A stretch of DNA of 58,958 nt from a bacterium. GTDB taxonomy: Bacteria; Patescibacteriota; Minisyncoccia; UBA6257. A program made the translations under genes and the position numbers. The DNA lies in contig JBAMLJ010000028.1 in the NCBI GenBank assembly GCA_039793615.1, positions 1 through 58,958 of the forward strand, in the 5' to 3' direction. Under the pieces are notes generated by a model. The model saw only the letters and a list, made by a program, of their open reading frames with translations, was not told where the DNA came from and did not search any database. Shown here piece by piece: positions 176 to 43,987 of this stretch. How positions within the stretch are numbered: position 1 is the stretch's first letter; every line of letters starts with the position of its first letter.

Positions 176-404
176 ATTAATATTATTATTATTAAATTTT
201 TTAAATAAACCAATATTGCGTGATAAAAATTTATTCCAATATTGAATGCTCCACTCTAATTTTTTTATTAACTAAACAGCTCTTTTTATAATTCCAGAAT
301 GCTAGCCAAAGAGAGTAACCATCTAAAACCCATTTAAAACAAAACTATTAATTAAAAAACTGTCAAATATTTAAGCTGAAAAATTAAAGTAAAATAAAAA
401 AACT

Positions 405-542
405 TTAAAAAAGAGAGGGTTATTAGAAGGTCGATTTCAGCTTAAAACCAAGTGGGAATCCTCCCTTTTACCCCTCAGGATAAAAGACTCGGATCCCCTT
501 GTAGAAAAAAAATGACCTGAATCGTTTCCTCCTAATAACCCC
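405..542 (-). ncRNA. Unclassified structured RNA: rod-like hairpin with a large central internal loop (6S-like or SRP-like architecture, class not established)
   Basis: GC-richer island in an AT-rich spacer. Nested helices are 417-430/528-541, 432-440/517-524, 449-461/491-501 and 464-473/478-487 with tetraloop 474-477. Four non-Watson-Crick positions are G-U on the minus strand but A-C on the plus strand. A promoter lies just upstream, and the closing stem is followed by a U6 run on the minus strand. Confidence 0.5.
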
Positions 543-547
543 ATTGA

Positions 548-576
548 ATTATAACAAAATTTAAAATTTTTTACAA
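548..576 (-). promoter_or_regulatory. sigma70-type promoter with extended -10 driving the 405-542 RNA
   Basis: Minus strand reads TTGTAA (576-571), a 17-nt spacer, then TGT-TATAAT (556-548). The predicted start 6-7 nt downstream falls on the GGGG that opens the closing stem. Confidence 0.45.
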
Positions 577-2849: not shown

Positions 2850-3695
2850 TTAAATATTTTCTGGCTTAATAAACAATCTTCCATTTTTAAAAATAAATTT
2901 AATCGTTCCGTTTAAATCAGTACGAAAAATTTTAATCTTTAAATTATTTAATCTTTCTAAAACAGTTTCGTGAGGTTCGTTAAATTTATTTTCACCCACT
3001 TCAATTACTGCTATTTCTGGTTTAATGCTTTCTAAGAATTCTAAAGAAGAAGCTGTTTTAGAGCCGTGATGCGCTACTTTTAAGATATCGATTTTTTCTT
3101 TAAAAATTTGTATTATTTGTTTTTCTATTTTAGCATCAATATCACCAGTAAAAAGAAATTTTCTTTGATTCAACTTTAGTAACACAACTAAACTTCGTTC
3201 GTTAACATTTAAATTCTTCAAAAAATTTTCATTAGGATAAATAATCAAAAAATAATTATTAAACCAAGAAATTTTTGTTCCTATCTTACCCCGCAAAAGT
3301 AAAACATTTTTATCTCTTAATGTCTTAATTAATTTTTGATAACGACTCGCGGGATAATTTAAATCATTAAGCAAAACTGCTCTAATTTTATAATGCTCTA
3401 AAAGAGAGAAAAGTCCATTAAAATGATCGGTATTAGGATGAGAAATAATAACCAAATCAATTGTTTTATCATAAAAAGGCAAAATTTTACTAATTTCAAA
3501 AAGAATTTGGTTATCGGGACCACTATCAATTAAAACATTTCCCGCCTTTGTTCTAATCAATTCACTATCCCCTTGTCCAATATTTAAAAAAGCGACCTCG
3601 TCATTTAAAAATAAAAAATCAAAAATAAGGTAATAGCAAAAAAGATTTAATAAAACAAAAAATAATACAGAAAAAAATAAAAATTTATTTTTCAT
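2850..3695 (-). CDS. ComEC-type metallo-beta-lactamase domain protein with its own N-terminal TM helix
   Basis: ISHPNTDHFNG (HxHxDH-like), AHHGS, and a hydrophobic N-terminus. It overlaps the upstream ComEC membrane-domain ORF by 11 nt. Confidence 0.75.
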   Translation of the reverse strand: MKNKFLFFSVLFFVLLNLFCYYLIFDFLFLNDEVAFLNIGQGDSELIRTKAGNVLIDSGPDNQILFEISKILPFYDKTIDLVIISHPNTDHFNGLFSLLEHYKIRAVLLNDLNYPASRYQKLIKTLRDKNVLLLRGKIGTKISWFNNYFLIIYPNENFLKNLNVNERSLVVLLKLNQRKFLFTGDIDAKIEKQIIQIFKEKIDILKVAHHGSKTASSLEFLESIKPEIAVIEVGENKFNEPHETVLERLNNLKIKIFRTDLNGTIKFIFKNGRLFIKPENI

Positions 3696-17972: not shown

Positions 17973-18284
17973 TTATAATTTAAATTTCTTTCTTAAATTA
18001 GAACTCATCATTTTAGGGTTCCAAGGAGGATCAAAAGTGAGTTGTAAGTCGACTTTACCAAATTTTAAATTAGTTAATGCTTCTTCAGTTTGCTTTATTA
18101 AGAAAGTATTAAAAGGACAAGTAATAGAAGTTAAAGTCATTAAAACCTTAATATTTTTTCTCTTTTTATCAATTTTTATTTGATAAATTAATCCCAGATC
18201 AACGATATTAATACCTAATTCAGGATCAAAAACATTTTTCAAAACTTTCTCAACATCTTTTTTAGTAATATTTTGTTTATTCAT
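17973..18284 (-). CDS. DUF59/MIP18-family (SufT-like) Fe-S assembly protein
   Basis: DPELGINIVDLGLIY and TLTSITCP, 103 aa. It overlaps the rpoC stop by 8 nt. Confidence 0.7.
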   Translation of the reverse strand: MNKQNITKKDVEKVLKNVFDPELGINIVDLGLIYQIKIDKKRKNIKVLMTLTSITCPFNTFLIKQTEEALTNLKFGKVDLQLTFDPPWNPKMMSSNLRKKFKL

Positions 18285-21200
18285 AATGAATTAATCTTTT
18301 TCTAAAACCAGTACCAGCAGGAATTAAACGACCAATTATTACATTTTCTTTTAACCCCCTTAAATAATCAACTCTTCCCTCTAAAGAAGCTTGAACTAAA
18401 ACTCTTGTTGTTTCTTGGAAAGAAGCCGGTGCTAAAACACTAGAAGAAGTTAAGGCAACAGTTTTAATACCTAAAACAATTTCTTCTACTTTTGGTGGTT
18501 TTTTGCCTTGTTTTTCAAATTCTTTACTAATCTTCTGATACAATTCCTTTTCAATGATTTCACCCTGAACAAATTCAGAATCATTGGGTTCTATTACTTT
18601 AACTCGAGAGAACATTTGTCTAATAATAATCTCTAAATGCTTATCATTAATTTTGTCTCCACCAGCATCTTGATAAACTTTTTTGATTTCTGCGAGAATA
18701 TATTTCTGACAAGCTTCTTTTCCTGAAATTCTTAATACTTTCTTTAGATTCAAACTACCCTCGCATAATTGATCTCCTTTTTTAACTTTATCTCCAACTT
18801 TAACCCATAAAGTATTTATATTTGGGATTTTGTACTCAATCACATCATTTGTCGATTTAGTATTTTTCTTTGGCTTTTCCTCCTCATTTTGTTTCTCTTT
18901 TTCAATTTTAATGCGCACAATATTATAATGAGCTTGTTTCTCAATATCGATCACTTCACCATTAACTTCACTAATAGGAGCCTCTCCTTTCGGTATTCGT
19001 GCCTCTACTAATTCTTCGACACGTGGTAAACCACGGGTAATATCCAAAGCCTGAGCCACACCTCCAGTATGGAAAGTTCTTAAAGTTAATTGTGTTCCTG
19101 GTTCACCAATAGATTGTGCCGCCACGATTCCCACTGCTTCCCCTAAATCAATTGGTTTAAGCCAAGCAAGATCAATACCATAACATTTCTGACAAACCCC
19201 GTAAGGAGTTTCGCAGGTTAAAGGAGATCTTACTATTACTTCATCTACTTCATTGGCAATTTTCTTTGATAATTCTAAAGTAATTAATTCGTTACGTCTT
19301 GCAATAATTTCTCCTTTTTTATTCAAAACATCCTGAGCCAAGTAACGACCGTAAATTTTTTCATCAAATTTTTCACCGGCATTTTCTACTTCTTGTTTAG
19401 AAATTTTAATACCACCTTTTGTACCACAATCTTCTTCTCTTACAATTACCTCTTGACTCACATCAATTAATCTTCTTGTTAAATAACCAGCTTTTGAAGT
19501 TTTTAAAGCTGTATCAGCTAAACCTTTCCTACCTCCATGAGAAGCAGCAAAATATTCCAAAACATCAAAACCTTCTTGATGAGAATGAAGAATTGGTAAC
19601 TCAATGATTTTACCACTAGGATTGACAACTAACCCCTTCATTCCCATAATTTGAGAAGCAATATCCCAACCACCACGTGCACCAGAGTTAAAAATAACAG
19701 CAACTGAATCTGTTTGTGATAAAGTATGAGGTACTAATTCACTTACTTTACTAATAGCCAAACGCCATTGTTCTTCTACTAAAATTTTCTTTTCATTTAA
19801 AGTTAATAGACCTTCTTCATATTGGGAGTTAATTTCTGCAACTTTTTTATTCGTTTCTTCAATTATTTGTTTTTTCTCTTGGGGCACTTTTAAATCCGAT
19901 AAACCCCAAGTAATACCTGAAAAAGTGGCATAATAAAAACCTAATTCTTTTATTTTATCCAAAATTTCAGCACAATAATTAAAATCTTTATAACGATAAA
20001 TTAAATCACGAGTGATCCCCTTTAAATTCTTATTAACTAATTCTTTATTAATAAAAGGAAAATCTTCTGGAAGAACCTGATTAAAAATAATTCTTCCTGC
20101 TGTAGTAGTAATTAATGTTCCCGGTTCCTCATTATTAGTGGTAATTTTATTCAAACGAACTTTAATTTTTTCTTGATAACTAATTTTTTGATTTTCAACT
20201 GCTAATAATACTTCATTAATATTACTAAAAACTTTATATTCCTCTTCTTTGCGAGAATCATTTAAATCCATTGTTAACCAATAAATACCTAAAGACATTT
20301 CATGTCGAGGTTGCATTACAGCATCACCATCCACTGGTTTTAATAAACCTAAACTAGCGAGCATTCTGTTTTGTGATTCTCTTTGGGCTTCTTCTGTTAA
20401 TGGTAAATGGACTGCCATCTGATCACCATCAAAATCAGCATTAAAAGGAGGACAAACCAAAGCAGGAATTTGTATTGCTAATCCCTCGATTAATTTAGGC
20501 TGAAAAGCCTCAATACTCAAACGGTGTAAAGTTGGAGCACGATTAAGTAAAACATATTTTCCCTTTACCACGTTTTCCAATATTTCCCAAACAATAGGCG
20601 GGCCTTCTTCGATTAATTTATTAGCAGCACGAGGATTAAAAACAATCTCTCTTTTTATTAATTCACTAATAACAAATGGTTTAAATAATTCCAGAGCCAT
20701 TTTTTTAGGTAAACCGCATTCATAAATATGTAAATCCGGCCCAATTACAATTACGGAACGACCTGAATAATCAACTCTTTTACCAAGTAAATTTTGACGA
20801 AAACGACCTTGTTTTCCCTGAAGAATATCAGATAAAGAACGAAGAGGACGATTCTGAGCTGCTTGCATTGGTGAACTACCAGAAGTTTTTCTAATAGAAT
20901 TATCAATCAAGGCATCAACTGCTTCTTGAAGCATCCTTTTTTCATTTTTAATAATTACTTCTGGGGCCCTTAACTCTAATAATTTCTTTAAGCGATTATT
21001 ACGATTAATAACTCTACGATATAAATCATTTAAATCAGAGGAAGCAAAACGACCCCCATCTAGTTGAACCATTGGTCTTAAATCAGGGGGCAAAACTGGT
21101 AAAACTGTTAAAAACATCCATTCTGGTCGAACTTGTGATTTAATTAAAGATTTAACCAATCTTAAACGAACAAGTAATTTTTTATCAATTTGGGCTCCCT

Positions 21201-21939
21201 CTTTTTTCTTCTTAATCTCTTCCTCTAATTCGTTCTTTAATTTTTCCAAATCTAACTCTTGAAGCATTTTTCTTAAAGGCTCGCTTCCTGTTTCTGCAGT
21301 AAAAATATGGGCATAATCTTTAGCTAATTGTAAATAATCTATTTCCGAAAGAATAGTTTTTACTTTAAGATTTTCGAGCTCTAATTTTGTTTTCTTATAA
21401 GATTCTTCTAATTCATTTCTTTGTTCTTTGGGCCAATTACTTAATTTATTTTTAAATTCTTTCTCTAAATCATCTAAAGCTTTATTTTTTTCCTTTTCAT
21501 CAATTGAAGTAATAATATAACTATTATAATAAATAACTTTCTCTAAAGCTGGTAAAGGAATATCTAAAATTAAACTTAAACGAGATGGAACACTTCTTAA
21601 ATACCAAATATGAGCTACAGGAGCAGCTAAAGTAATGTGCCCCATTCTTTCGCGACGCACTAAAGAACGTGTTACCTCAACTCCACAACGATCACAAATA
21701 ATTCCTTTATAACGAATTCCTTTATATTTACCACAAGCACATTCGTAATCTTTAACTGGACCAAAAATCTGTTCAGAAAACAACCCTTCTTTTTCTGGTT
21801 TTTGAGTACGATAATTAATTGTCTCTGCTCTTGTTACTTCCCCATAAGACCAATCCAAAATTTCTTCGGGGGACGCTAGTTTGATTGATAAAGCATCAAA
21901 ATCGTTAATTTTTATTTCTTTAGTTTCTTTTGGTGCCAT
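18277..21939 (-). CDS. rpoC: DNA-directed RNA polymerase subunit beta'
   Basis: Zn-binding CACGKY...CDRCG, catalytic [12 protein letters not shown], 1220 aa. Confidence 0.97.
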
Positions 21940-21992
21940 AGAGATAAAATAAATTAAAATTATTGTTTATGATTGTTTATGGATATTTTAAA

Positions 21993-24900
21993 TTATTCAA
22001 TTATTTTCTCTTGTTGAATAAAGTTTTCTTTGTTATTTTCCTCATTTTTAATACCTAATAAATTAACCGCCAAACCTAATGCTTGTAATTCTTTAAGAAT
22101 TACATTAAAGGCCGCGGGGATGTTAGGACTTTTTATTTTTTCTCCTCGAATAATAGCTTCATAAGTAGCCGCTCTTCCGATAATATCATCGGATTTTATA
22201 GTAATCATTTCTTGCAAAGTATAAGCGGCACCATAACCCTCTAAAGCCCAAACCTCCATTTCTCCAAATCTCTGGCCACCATGATGAGCTTTTCCTCCTA
22301 ATGGCTGTTGGGTTACTAAAGAATAGGGTCCAATAGAACGCATATGAACCTTATCTTCAACCATATGTTCCAATTTCAAAATATACATTACTCCAACTGA
22401 AACTGGCTGTTTAAACGGTTCTCCTGTTTTTCCGTCATAAACTGTTAATTTTCCATCTTCGGGCAAACCAGCGGCTTTTAATTCATTTTTGATATCCTCC
22501 TCAGAAGCACCATCTAAAGCAGGGGTAATCGCTTGATAATTTAAAACTTTACAGGCCAAACCTAAAGCATTTTCAAAAATTTGCCCCAAGTTCATTCTTT
22601 TACCAACTCCTAAAGGATTTAAAACAATATCAACTGGAGTTCCATCTTCTAAATAAGGCATATCTTCCTCGGGGAGAATAACAGAGATTACTCCTTTATT
22701 ACCATGACGACCAGCTAATTTATCACCTGCCTGTAATTTTCTTAATTCCGCGATCTCAACACTAATTCTTTTGATAATACCAGGATCTAATTTATCATTA
22801 TTTTCTCGGCTTAAAATCTTTGTTCTAATAACTCTTCCCCGACGAGAAGGATCTAGAGTTAAAGATGTATCTTTTACATCTTTTATCTCTTCGCCAAAAA
22901 TTGCTTGAAGCAATCTTTCCTCTGGGGTTAATTCTACTTTTCCTTTGGGAGTAATTTTACCAACTAAAATATCACCGGGTTTTACTTCAGCTCCAATTCT
23001 TACTATTCCATCTTCATCTAAATCTTTTAATTTTTCTTCTGAAACATTAGGGATATCCCTAGTTGTCATTTCCGGTCCCAATTTTGTATCTAATACATCA
23101 CAAGTAAATTCTTCTAAATAAACAGAGGTGAAATAATCATTTTTTAAAACCCTTTCTGAAACAACAATTGCATCCTCGTAATTAAAACCATAAAAAGGAA
23201 TAAAAGCAACTACTAAATTTTGCCCCAATGCTAATTGACCATTATCACTAATAGAACCATCGGCTAATAAATCATATTTTTTAACTCTTTGTCCCTTCTT
23301 TACTACTGGTCTTTGATGGAGACAACTATTTTTATTACTTCTTTCAAAAACAATTAATTGGTATTCTTTTAATTTATTTTCATCTGTTTTAATAATAATT
23401 TTAGAACTATCAACAAAAACAACTTCTCCATCAACATCACTTAATAAACAATGGCCTGATTCAAGAGCAATTTTCTTTTCCATTCCCGTAGCTACTAACG
23501 GAGCCTGTGGCCTAACACAAGCTACTGCCTGTCTTTGCATATTAGCACCCATTAAAGCACGATTAGATTCATCGTGTTCTAAGAACGGGATCAAACTCAC
23601 AGCTGCCGAAATTGTCTGTTGACACGAAATATCCATTAAATCAACCTCTTCGCGAGAGACCATAGTTGGCTCACCATTTACCCTTGCCCCCACAAATTTG
23701 TCTTTAATACGATAATTTTCATCTAGATCGATTCCTCCATGAGCTATTTTATGTTTTAGTTCTTCAAAAGCATCTAACCAAACAATTTCTTTGCTAACTT
23801 GACCATTTTTAACCTTAACATAAGGCGTTTCAATAAAACCAAATTCATTTAATTGAGCATATAAAGCCAAAGATAGTACTAAACCAATATTTTGACCTTC
23901 TGGAGTTTGGATGGGACATAAACGGCCATAATGACTTGGGTGAACATCACGTACTTCTAAGCCAGCCCTTTCTCTAACCAAACCGCCTGGACCGGTAGTA
24001 GTAACTTTCCTTTTGTGTTCCAATTCAGAAAGCATATTCATCTGCTCCATAAATTGACACAAAGGAGAAGTATTAAAAAACTCTCTTAAACTGTTTATTA
24101 ATTGTCGAGGATTAATTAATTGCGCCGGGGTTAAAGTTGAAGGATCTAAAGTAGCCATGCGATCCTGAATAGTTCTTCTCATTCTCATTACTCCAACGCG
24201 AAAACGCTCTGTTAAAAGCTCTCCTACAGCTCGAATTCTTCTATTCCCTAAATGGTCAATATCATCATCTTCGCTATTAGGATCTAAATTTAATCTAATA
24301 ATTTCTTTTATTGTCTCAATTAAATCATCTTTGGTTAAAAATCTTTGTGTAATAGGAATATTTAAATTTAATCTTTGATTTATTTTATGACGGCCAACTT
24401 TACCTAAATCGTAACGATCTCGACGAAAAAACATATTGTCGATTAAATCTTTACTGTTATCGTAAGTAGCCAATTCTCCTGGTCTTAAACGACGGTAGAC
24501 CTCAATATACCCCTCTTCTTGATTAGTTGATTCGTCATGTTTTAAAGTGGCATCAATATATTCCATTAAAGAGGGATCTTTAAAACCATCAAAATATTCC
24601 CTAATTTGTTCGTTATTTTCAAAACCAAAAATTTTGAGTAAAGCAGTGACCGCAATTTTTCTTTTTTTATCTATTTTAACCCAAATAGTTTTTTCCGGAT
24701 CAGTTTCGAATTCCAACCAAGAACCGTGGGTTGGTAATAATTTAGCACCAAATAATTTAATTCCTCTAAAATTTACTGATTGAAAATAAACTCCAGGAGA
24801 ACGATTGATTTGCGAAATAACAACTTTTTCGACACCATTAATAATAAAAGTGCCACGGGGTGTCATCAAAGGTATTTCTCCAAAATATACTTCTGCTTCT

Positions 24901-25205
24901 TTTTCGGTGTTTAATTTTTTATCTTTTAATCTTAATCTAACTTTTAAAGATGCTTCATAATTTAGTTCTTTTAGCTTTGCTTCTTTTTCAGTAAGTTTTG
25001 GTTCACTCAAATAATAATCTAAAAATTCTAATTCTAATTCTTTATTAGTATAATCCCTAATTGGAGACAATTCTTCAAAAACATCCCTAATGCCGGTTTT
25101 TAAAAACCAATTATATGATTGAATTTGAAAATCGGTTAAGGGGGGTGGTTCTAAAAAATCCCATTGATGATGAGCAAAATTTTTAACCGTTAATTTTTTA
25201 GACAT
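21993..25205 (-). CDS. rpoB: DNA-directed RNA polymerase subunit beta
   Basis: Conserved beta-subunit blocks (GRHGNKGVIS, EDMPY, GGQRFGEMEVWALE), 1070 aa. Confidence 0.97.
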   Translation of the reverse strand: MSKKLTVKNFAHHQWDFLEPPPLTDFQIQSYNWFLKTGIRDVFEELSPIRDYTNKELELEFLDYYLSEPKLTEKEAKLKELNYEASLKVRLRLKDKKLNTEKEAEVYFGEIPLMTPRGTFIINGVEKVVISQINRSPGVYFQSVNFRGIKLFGAKLLPTHGSWLEFETDPEKTIWVKIDKKRKIAVTALLKIFGFENNEQIREYFDGFKDPSLMEYIDATLKHDESTNQEEGYIEVYRRLRPGELATYDNSKDLIDNMFFRRDRYDLGKVGRHKINQRLNLNIPITQRFLTKDDLIETIKEIIRLNLDPNSEDDDIDHLGNRRIRAVGELLTERFRVGVMRMRRTIQDRMATLDPSTLTPAQLINPRQLINSLREFFNTSPLCQFMEQMNMLSELEHKRKVTTTGPGGLVRERAGLEVRDVHPSHYGRLCPIQTPEGQNIGLVLSLALYAQLNEFGFIETPYVKVKNGQVSKEIVWLDAFEELKHKIAHGGIDLDENYRIKDKFVGARVNGEPTMVSREEVDLMDISCQQTISAAVSLIPFLEHDESNRALMGANMQRQAVACVRPQAPLVATGMEKKIALESGHCLLSDVDGEVVFVDSSKIIIKTDENKLKEYQLIVFERSNKNSCLHQRPVVKKGQRVKKYDLLADGSISDNGQLALGQNLVVAFIPFYGFNYEDAIVVSERVLKNDYFTSVYLEEFTCDVLDTKLGPEMTTRDIPNVSEEKLKDLDEDGIVRIGAEVKPGDILVGKITPKGKVELTPEERLLQAIFGEEIKDVKDTSLTLDPSRRGRVIRTKILSRENNDKLDPGIIKRISVEIAELRKLQAGDKLAGRHGNKGVISVILPEEDMPYLEDGTPVDIVLNPLGVGKRMNLGQIFENALGLACKVLNYQAITPALDGASEEDIKNELKAAGLPEDGKLTVYDGKTGEPFKQPVSVGVMYILKLEHMVEDKVHMRSIGPYSLVTQQPLGGKAHHGGQRFGEMEVWALEGYGAAYTLQEMITIKSDDIIGRAATYEAIIRGEKIKSPNIPAAFNVILKELQALGLAVNLLGIKNEENNKENFIQQEKIIE

Positions 25206-34468: not shown

Positions 34469-34838
34469 GGGGATGTTCGGATTCGCTAGAAAGGAATTTC
34501 TTAATACGCGAACTGAGGAACTTCGTTAGCTCATTAAAATCGAAGGGCACAAAAAATGCCAATCAAATTCCTGCCTATGCCTATGCTTAATAGCTTAGGA
34601 TAGGTTTCTCCTTCTTTAAGGAGCCCTCTTTAATTAATTCTCGGTAAATTAAAGGGGGAAGAATATCGAGATAGATTTAAATTAACTTATCCGATTAATT
34701 TAAATCGAAATTCATTCGGATAGTTTTAAGAAAACGTTTTGTTCAGTTTCGTTTCTTAAAACTATAAAAACTGAACTACGTTCGTAGAAGTATTAAGAAT
34801 GCACTTTCTAGACGCGAGTTCAACTCTCGCCATCTCCA
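34469..34838 (+). ncRNA. ssrA: tmRNA (SsrA), tag ORF ANQIPAYAYA*
   Basis: The 5' end GGGGAUGUUCGGAUUCG pairs with the 3' end CAUCUCCA. T-arm is GCGAG-UUCAACU-CUCGC. The resume region AAAAAAU|GCC AAU CAA AUU CCU GCC UAU GCC UAU GCU UAA UAG spans 34558-34590. CCA is not encoded. Confidence 0.9.
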
Positions 34839-34885
34839 CTCTCGAGCCATAACAAACAGTAATAAATTGTTAATCTTTAAACATT

Positions 34886-40950: not shown

Positions 40951-41022
40951 TATCCCCAACAAGACTCGAACTTGTATCTCAAGCTCCGGAAGCTTGCGTT
41001 TTATCCGTTAAACTATGGGGAC
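40951..41022 (-). tRNA. tRNA-Arg (anticodon CCG)
   Basis: Hand-folded cloverleaf. Acceptor is GUCCCCA/UGGGGAU plus discriminator A. D arm is GUUU-AACGGAUA-AAAC. Anticodon arm is CAAGC-UUCCGGA-GCUUG. T arm is ACAAG-UUCGAGU-CUUGU. CCA is not encoded. Confidence 0.85.
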
Positions 41023-42544: not shown

Positions 42545-43987
42545 TTAACCTTTAATTACTGCCAAAGGCACTAATTGAATTACTTTTTGAGCTAAATAAG
42601 CTTTTGAAACCACTTCCACTACCCGATTAACATCTTTATAAGCTAAGGGTGCTTCTTCAGCTAAATTATAAACCGAATTAACCATTACTATAATTCCTTT
42701 TTTTTCTAATTCTTCTTTTAAAGTTTGGCTAGACATTTTTCGCATTGCCTCATGACGTGACATTGTTCTTCCGGCACCATGACAAACAGAATAAAAACTT
42801 TCTTCTGCCTCTTTTAACCCTTTTAAAATATAAGAAGCTGTTCCCATTGAACCAGGAATTAAAATTGGTTGCCCAATTTCTTGATATTTAAAAGGAATTT
42901 CTGGGTGAAAAGGAGGAAAAGCACGAGTTGCTCCTTTGCGATGAATCAATAATTTTTTTTCTTTTCCATCGATTTGAAATGTCTCTAATTTAATAATATT
43001 ATGAGCCACATCATATAAAATATCTAAATCATCCTTGAGGCTAGGAAATACTTTTTTAATTGCTTTTCTTATATAATAAGTAATCATCTGACGATTAGCC
43101 CAAGCATAATTAGCAGCTGCAGCAGAAGCCTTAAACCCCTCCTGACCTTCTTGTGATTGAAACGGAACACAAGCAAATTCTTGATCAGGCACATTGATTT
43201 TATATTTGGGCATTAAATTAACGAATTTTTTGATATAATCAGTTGCCACCTGATGCCCTAAACCACGCGATCCTGTATGAATCATGATTACTATTTGATT
43301 TTTAAATAAACCAAAAACTTGTGCCGCTTTTTCATCATAAATTTCATTAACTTTTTGAATTTCTAAAAAATGATTACCCGAACCAAGAGTTCCTATTTGA
43401 TCTCTCCCTCTTTCTTTAGCAGTTAAAGAAATATAACGATGGTCAGCATAATTTAAATTGCCATTACTTTCGCAAAACTCTAAATCATTTTCATTTCCGT
43501 AACCTTTTTTTACTAAATATTTAGCACCTTCATCTAAAATATTATTTAATTCTTCATCACTTAATTTTATTTTTCTTCCCTTGCCTAAACCAGATGGAAC
43601 TGCCTCATAAATTTCTCGTGCTAATTTTTTTAAAAATTGTTTGATTTCATTTTCTTCAAAATTAGTTTTAATTAATCTCATGCCACAATTAATATCATAA
43701 CCCTGCATTCCAGGCGCAATTATTCCAATTTCGCTATCAATTGCAGCTACTCCCCCAATAGGAGAAGCGTAACCCTCATGAATATCGGGCATTGCTAAAG
43801 CATACTTATAAATTCCGTTTAAAGCGCTAACATTTATGAGCTGTTCTAAAGAGCGATCTTTTAAAATATCTTCTAACAAAACTTCATCCGCATAAAAACG
43901 AGCACTAACTTTCATAAAATCTTTGTAACCTTTTGGAATCTCCCAAAGATAATCGTTAATTTTAATAATATCTGATTTATTAATCAT
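42545..43987 (-). CDS. rtcB: RNA 3'-phosphate ligase RtcB
   Basis: PDIHEGY, GYDINCGMR, GSGNHF, HTGSRGLGHQV, and CHGAGR with the catalytic His. Confidence 0.93.
   Translation of the reverse strand: MINKSDIIKINDYLWEIPKGYKDFMKVSARFYADEVLLEDILKDRSLEQLINVSALNGIYKYALAMPDIHEGYASPIGGVAAIDSEIGIIAPGMQGYDINCGMRLIKTNFEENEIKQFLKKLAREIYEAVPSGLGKGRKIKLSDEELNNILDEGAKYLVKKGYGNENDLEFCESNGNLNYADHRYISLTAKERGRDQIGTLGSGNHFLEIQKVNEIYDEKAAQVFGLFKNQIVIMIHTGSRGLGHQVATDYIKKFVNLMPKYKINVPDQEFACVPFQSQEGQEGFKASAAAANYAWANRQMITYYIRKAIKKVFPSLKDDLDILYDVAHNIIKLETFQIDGKEKKLLIHRKGATRAFPPFHPEIPFKYQEIGQPILIPGSMGTASYILKGLKEAEESFYSVCHGAGRTMSRHEAMRKMSSQTLKEELEKKGIIVMVNSVYNLAEEAPLAYKDVNRVVEVVSKAYLAQKVIQLVPLAVIKG

Follow-up and report, generated by a model that had tools for sequence, protein, structure and literature searches.

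The RNA gene downstream of ndk on the minus strand of the window (the whole analyzed stretch of 58,958 nt) is a structurally conserved, independent gene and not a chance hairpin, and it belongs to a family of Patescibacteria RNAs that has both the architecture and the sequence signatures of 6S RNA. We consider it probable, at roughly three chances in four, that the window RNA is a compact, divergent homologue of 6S RNA (ssrS-type) and acts like 6S. 6S RNA sequesters RNA polymerase. The assignment of the window RNA would be a transitive one, in which the window copy matches the family by a covariance model and a profile HMM, and some members of the family in turn match the Rfam 6S model (RF00013).

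The minus-strand gene order in the window is aspS (1379-2788), ndk (583-1188), the RNA and rpmB (ATG at 175). The window is AT-rich, and the GC content is 0.41-0.42 over positions 401-550 compared with 0.19-0.24 in the flanks. The nearest homologues of its ndk are named Minisyncoccia, Paceibacterota or Parcubacteria, and five contigs near-identical to the window are present in public MAGs. The minus strand of 405-560 folds into a single interrupted rod of -54.2 kcal/mol (z = -4.60), and none of 200 shuffled sequences is as stable, so that the interrupted hairpin is as a preliminary description of this locus had presented it. The plus strand folds more weakly (-40.9 kcal/mol). Four G-U wobbles on the minus strand (416/542, 427/531, 464/487, and 471/480) turn into A-C mismatches on the plus strand, which fits the poorer energy of that strand and agrees with the earlier choice of the minus strand as the functional one.

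The same description had placed a promoter and a terminator at the two ends of a discrete RNA gene, and this is upheld by the promoter scan, the U-run and the signals that the relatives carry themselves. The scan locates TTGTAA-17-TATAAT, with a TG preceding the -10 box, at 576..548 of the minus strand, matching at 10 of 12 positions, and this promoter places the start of the RNA at about G542. The 5' end is thus predicted near G542 and the 3' end within the U-run. The closing stem and the U-rich tail that follows it (Table 1) are likely an intrinsic terminator; a strict terminator scan gives no call at the closing stem and this tail, the loop being far too long for the rule. The window has no further terminator in the stretch from ndk to the RNA, which suggests that read-through from ndk probably ends at the same stem and U-run.

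Table 1. Predicted parts of the RNA gene in the window.
Feature	Position	Strand	Basis and remarks
-35-like box TTGTAA	571..576	minus	promoter scan; begins 7 nt past the ndk stop codon
Extended -10 box TGtTATAAT	548..556	minus	promoter scan
Predicted mature RNA, ~135 nt	408..542	minus	fold; R1 covariance model match at 410-543, 151 bits
Closing stem, 5' strand GGGGUUAUUAGGAGG	528..542	minus	15 bp with 416-430
Inner closing helix, 5' strand CGAUUCAG	517..524	minus	8 bp with 432-440, one bulge; helix 3 of the family covaries
5' central bulge GUCAUUUUUUUUCUACAA, A/U-rich	499..516	minus	fold; the RF00013 consensus has its A/U-rich bulge in register here
Bulge-proximal helix, 5' strand GGGGAUCC	491..498	minus	pairs with 454-461; 8 bp (MFE) or 11 bp (centroid)
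Apical hairpin	464..487	minus	10 bp (487-478 with 473-464), loop UGAG at 474-477
CCCAC motif, 3' edge of the bulge-proximal helix	452..456	minus	nearly invariant in 36 members
3'-bulge hairpin region CUUGGUUUUAAGCUGAAAUCG	432..452	minus	fold; helix 7 of the family is 95% paired and covaries
Closing stem, 3' strand CCUUCUAAUAACCCU	416..430	minus	fold
Tail CUCUUUUUU	407..415	minus	sequence; directly after the closing stem

The loci searched for relatives of the RNA were gathered through their ndk gene, which yielded 80 species-level Patescibacteria loci. A single-sequence nhmmer search against 85 loci found, besides copies from the same species, only two weak relatives of the same shape, and these two seeded a covariance model (A3, then R1). 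The R1 model matches 36 of the 80 species-level loci, all on the ndk strand and usually 20-400 nt past the ndk stop codon. A profile HMM built from the R1-derived alignment adds 10 loci with the RNA in the same place, bringing the family to at least 46 of the 80. Each of the 36 copies folds alone into the same architecture. In the 36-sequence alignment, 86.9% of the cells are paired, compared with 58.1% in shuffled alignments and 38-50% with slid partners; 41 of the 44 pairs vary on both sides; and the covariation score is 0.707, compared with 0.21 after shuffling, with none of 500 shuffles reaching 0.707. Since this alignment was fitted to R1, the values are biased toward the structure, but the margin is very large and the single-sequence folds agree independently.

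The family RNAs have a median length of 132 nt (range 117-158). On the 5' side, the consensus consists of the closing stem, an inner helix ending in YC-YRG, and an A/U-rich bulge of 15-22 nt that starts with R-U-C-A-A. The middle part pairs GGGAG-NCC with GG-N-CACCC; in this helix a conserved 1x1 A.A loop comes after three G-C pairs, and an internal loop lies beyond it. The apex is a hairpin with a loop of the CUUG/UUCG type or carries large insertions, and the 3' side consists of CCCAC, a small hairpin of the CUAG-N5-CUAG type and the return strand. Conservation sits around the central bulge and not at the apex. The closing stem (helices 1 and 2) is 94% and 86% paired and all 15 of its pairs covary, and three extra base pairs of the inner-helix region are backed by U-A/C-G and A-U/G-C exchanges. 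The two outermost G-C pairs of the bulge-proximal helix are invariant in all 36 copies. A 3x2 internal loop separates this helix from the apical stem in the window RNA. The apical helices 5 and 6 covary, while the loop and the stem length are variable and insertions are tolerated in relatives. The relatives refine the large asymmetric internal loop of the preliminary description, whose 3' side is no plain 8-nt strand but holds a conserved small hairpin.

Position 495/457 of the window RNA corresponds to the conserved 1x1 (A.A) loop of the family and is non-canonical in 28 of the 36 copies. Among six near-identical strain contigs, substitutions within the RNA occur only at 495 (G/A), 457 (U/A), and 477 (U/C, the first loop base), and the strains show G-U, A-U, A.A, and G.A at 495/457, the site of the 1x1 loop. 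The only other strain difference is seen in one contig (L003), where the length of the U-run within the 5' bulge is altered by a single base.

The family RNAs also carry the signals of their own transcription units. A TATAAT-like box (at least 5 of 6 matches) ends 2-11 nt before the closing stem in 33 of the 36 copies, often together with a TTGACA-like -35 box, so a sigma-70-type promoter consensus is evidently in use upstream of the family RNAs. A GC hairpin with a perfect stem followed by a U-run is found downstream in 19 of the 36 copies under a strict rule, and most of the others have an imperfect one as judged by eye. In most relatives, a short A-rich tail stands between the rod and this separate hairpin with its U-run; the window copy and a few others have the U-run directly after the closing stem itself. 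Six loci (L009, L082, L084, L040, L041, and L066) have the RNA 0.5-2.2 kb away from ndk, showing that the RNA is not simply the end of ndk. A tRNA gene on either strand is located directly after the RNA in five loci (L012:3446-3516, L020:3335-3405, L038:3368-3440, L040:4051-4124, and L058:3488-3559).

We then compared the family with the known RNA classes in Rfam. A scan of the 59-kb window at the Rfam gathering thresholds finds no SRP RNA, RNase P RNA, or canonical 6S; the only families above threshold are tmRNA (135.7 bits, 34469-34841, plus strand) and one tRNA (40951-41022, minus strand). Scans of positions 150-700 and 400-555 at E<=10 give no 6S, SRP, or Y RNA, only chance-level matches. 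Permissive scans of the loci of 37 relatives (~193 kb) show that RF00013 matches fall exactly on family RNAs, on the correct strand and in register, and nowhere else in the ~193 kb, and RF00013 is the only Rfam family that repeatedly matches these RNAs. The scores are 33.5 bits in L013, 22.9 in L022, 21.3 in the first of two tandem copies in L026 (a local match), 20.8 in L027, 20.5 in L012, and 19.8 in L084; the match in L013 has an E value of 0.0047 in a 65-kb scan and of 1.6e-5 when scanned alone. RF00013 matches of any strength are found in only 6 of ~38 scanned copies, and none reaches the RF00013 gathering score of 46.4 bits, a threshold that is an operational cut-off and not a biological definition. 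The Rfam check for SRP, 6S, and Y RNA that had been suggested thus leaves the window without a match to these classes and six relatives with sub-threshold matches to RF00013, and the 6S-like character noted at the outset is borne out by relatives that share the architecture and match this model in register.

The tandem copies in L026 (JBNJEF010000003.1) are 6S-like and lie after ndk at 3170-3340 and 3477-3655. Each is ~170 nt long with a longer apical arm, and RF00013 matches copy A and gives no match in copy B. They may be paralogues, like 6S-1 and 6S-2 of B. subtilis.

The register of the RF00013 matches can be followed motif by motif. In the RF00013 consensus, the A/U-rich bulge is followed by GGGAG, an A left unpaired behind three G-C pairs, a loop of sequence CUUG, and finally CACCCACCUGG, with which a hairpin begins. 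The alignment of L013 shows the same signatures in the same order in the family RNAs, and the window copy is slightly degenerate, with GGGGAUCC ... GGAUUCCCACUUGG at the corresponding places. The CCCAC motif is the same as that in CACCCACCUgg of the RF00013 consensus. The family HMM aligns to this consensus in register with 17 bits. The alignment of L013 to RF00013 has large deletions in the closing and apical arms of the model. Neither R1 (run with filters off) nor the family HMM gives a meaningful match to the annotated E. coli ssrS locus, and E. coli ssrS, checked against the annotation, itself lacks the GGGAG and CACCCAC of the RF00013 consensus.

Canonical 6S RNA has been described as a rod of 160-200 nt in which a closing stem and an apical stem flank a 5' central bulge; a hairpin lies opposite this bulge, and the product RNA (pRNA) starts within it (PMC8414754). 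Except for length, the structural points of this description match the family one by one. The rod fold, with closing stem, 5' central bulge, and apical stem with small internal loops, is found in the window RNA and in 36 of 36 relatives. The hairpin opposite the 5' bulge is present as helix 7, in which five of five pairs vary on both sides, and the sequence signature of the bulge region (A/U-rich bulge, GGGAG, 1x1 loop, and CACCCACCUGG) is present as well. The window RNA is ~135 nt long and stays below 46.4 bits, as do all relatives, and the family measures 117-158 nt against 160-200 nt for 6S because both the closing and the apical arm are shortened. Like RF00013 and its members E. coli ssrS and B. 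subtilis 6S-1, the family combines a closing stem, an A/U-rich 5' bulge, an apical stem, and a 3'-side hairpin; GGGAG and motifs resembling CACCCACCUGG occur in both, as does a 1x1 loop separated from the bulge by three G-C pairs; and both are free-standing genes with a sigma-70-type promoter. The genomic neighborhoods differ. The window RNA lies downstream of ndk, whereas E. coli ssrS is annotated next to fau/ygfA, and in lactic acid bacteria 6S adjoins rarA/uspA (PMC8414754).

That a lineage can have a 6S version of its own which the standard model is unable to recognize is shown by 6S-Flavo (RF01685) of Bacteroidetes, a divergent precedent that was found by comparative genomics, needed its own model, and was judged to do the job of 6S (PMC2864571). 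It comes from a different phylum and has no sequence or structure match here; RF01685 gives no match at E<=10 in the window or in the relatives' loci that were scanned.

A possible mode of action is outlined by analogy with the 6S RNAs of E. coli and B. subtilis. With its central bulge open, the rod would imitate an open promoter and sequester the holoenzyme of RNA polymerase that carries the housekeeping sigma factor. At rising NTP levels, this enzyme would use the 5' bulge as a template and start near the conserved R-U-C-A, opposite U515/C514; the pRNA is predicted to read 5'-(G)ACCUGAAUCGUUU. Synthesis of the pRNA would read into the inner closing helix, unzip 517..524, and free the 3' strand CUGAAAUCG. 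This strand and UUGGUUUUA would then form a new hairpin at the 3' side of the bulge, with release of the RNA. Both the binding of RNA polymerase and the templating of the pRNA are transferred here from the known 6S RNAs. The three nucleotides that follow the inner helix (517-519, CAG) can pair with 438-440 (CUG), the 3' half of the bulge hairpin, and this pairing is found in 77% of cells family-wide; the alternative helix contains two covarying pairs, with U-A/C-G and A-U/G-C exchanges. The same 3' nucleotides (438-440) thus have two mutually exclusive partners, 517-519 or the bulge hairpin. The 3'-bulge hairpin of the window RNA is weak in the free fold, and blocking the 5' strand in silico changes the 3' region from a 4-bp to a 9-bp hairpin (UUGGUUUUA/UGAAAUCGA), while other members gain or keep the hairpin. 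The alternative pairing and the refolding of the model fit the release step, and a switch of this kind is possible. In this ability to refold the 3' bulge strand into a hairpin, seen in silico for the window RNA, the family again resembles 6S, for which a release hairpin is reported in E. coli and B. subtilis by papers cited in PMC8414754. A GG at pRNA positions 4-6 is reported to be widely conserved in 6S (PMC8414754); the predicted pRNA of the window lacks it, whereas family members of the CCGG type have it.

Several other readings of the RNA were weighed against a 6S homologue. The family could be a lineage-specific structured RNA that is 6S-shaped by descent or by convergence and acts otherwise, as a sponge or scaffold for another protein or in a role tied to ndk. 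Such an RNA would account for a length ~30% below that of canonical 6S, for scores below the Rfam threshold, and for the tight linkage to ndk in place of a classical 6S neighborhood. However, the in-register RF00013 matches and the signature of GGGAG, the 1x1 loop, and the CACCCACCUGG hairpin favor homology over convergence, and the bulge and its flanking helices, which bind RNA polymerase in known 6S RNAs, are exactly the parts that are conserved here; we regard this reading as unlikely. A more specific form, to which we give slightly less credence still, is that only the 6S shape was kept in these host-dependent bacteria with reduced genomes and was re-purposed, for instance to bind some protein different from the sigma-A holoenzyme or to sense NTPs in functional coupling with the neighboring ndk. 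If true, the RNA would represent a new functional class and not merely a small 6S. Another conceivable reading is that the RNA has no role as a free molecule and merely provides ndk with its 3' UTR and intrinsic terminator. It follows ndk in most relatives, and in the window its promoter begins 7 nt past the ndk stop codon with no other terminator in between. A 130-nt rod in which 41 pairs covary and some motifs are invariant is, however, more than a terminator needs, and the family RNAs have their own -10 box in 33 of 36 copies, a separate terminator after the rod in most, and a distance of 0.5-2.2 kb from ndk in the six loci named above. These observations contradict what the preliminary description had named as grounds for dismissing the gene, that it is only the end of the ndk transcript, and make this explanation very improbable.

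The resemblance to SRP (4.5S) RNA in the preliminary description was based on a single rod-like hairpin of roughly 4.5S size, and the window RNA does share both with RF00169. The resemblance goes no further, as RF00169 and Y RNA give no match at E<=10 in any scan of the window or the relatives' loci. The apex is the conserved functional part of SRP RNA, but in the family it is variable, with UGAG or CGAG in the window strains and a CUUG/UUCG-type loop or a large insertion in relatives, and conservation sits around the central bulge. A GNRA-type tetraloop with the flanking symmetric and asymmetric loops of domain IV is not present, and the absence of domain IV motifs that had been reported is thus correct. 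We find a divergent SRP RNA hardly credible. A cis-regulatory leader of rpmB (L28) is suggested by the position of rpmB in the window, on the same strand with its start 232 nt after the RNA. In relatives, however, rpmB near the RNA is on the opposite strand (L012, L020, L024, L038, and L040), in most loci it is absent nearby, and a terminator follows the RNA. A leader of rpmB was rejected on this synteny and these terminators, and its probability is as negligible as that of an SRP RNA. Of the three options that the preliminary description had left open, only a known class in compact or divergent form, here 6S, survives, and neither SRP RNA nor a new class is supported; the RNA is most likely a compact, lineage-specific variant of a known RNA class.

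6S RNA is described as nearly universal. A literature search found no paper that treats 6S RNA together with Patescibacteria/CPR in any relevant way. Because the Rfam model misses the family copies, current pipelines would annotate no 6S across the genomes of this very large radiation, and a family-specific model would mend this. If the 6S reading is true, ~120-135 nt would be an unusually small size for a natural 6S, compared with the usual 160-200 nt. The compact form would show which parts are dispensable, namely much of both arms, and which are kept, namely the bulge, the GGG/CCC clamp with the 1x1 loop, and the 3' hairpin. The RNA would also be one of the earliest proposals of a regulatory RNA in these bacteria, which can hardly be cultivated, and the conserved site after ndk provides an easy genomic anchor for locating it. 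The presence of 6S in these bacteria would not astonish a specialist; that it is so small, escapes Rfam, and keeps a fixed site after ndk is still useful and mildly surprising.

The surroundings of the RNA in the window show some further features. The preliminary description had called the RNA the second one between ndk and rpmB, but no other structured RNA is found in the ndk-rpmB spacer. The spacer between the U-run of the RNA and the rpmB start codon (176-406, minus strand, ~230 nt) has no significant fold (z -0.36) and no Rfam match; it contains TTGACA at 366..361 on the minus strand. The aspS-ndk spacer (1189-1378) has ~6% GC over ~150 nt, is built of repeated AATTTTTAAAATTTAA-like units, and contains several promoter-like matches. 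The window also carries rpoC and rpoB (18277-25205, minus strand) and a full-length RtcB RNA ligase (42545-43987, minus strand; 550 bits).
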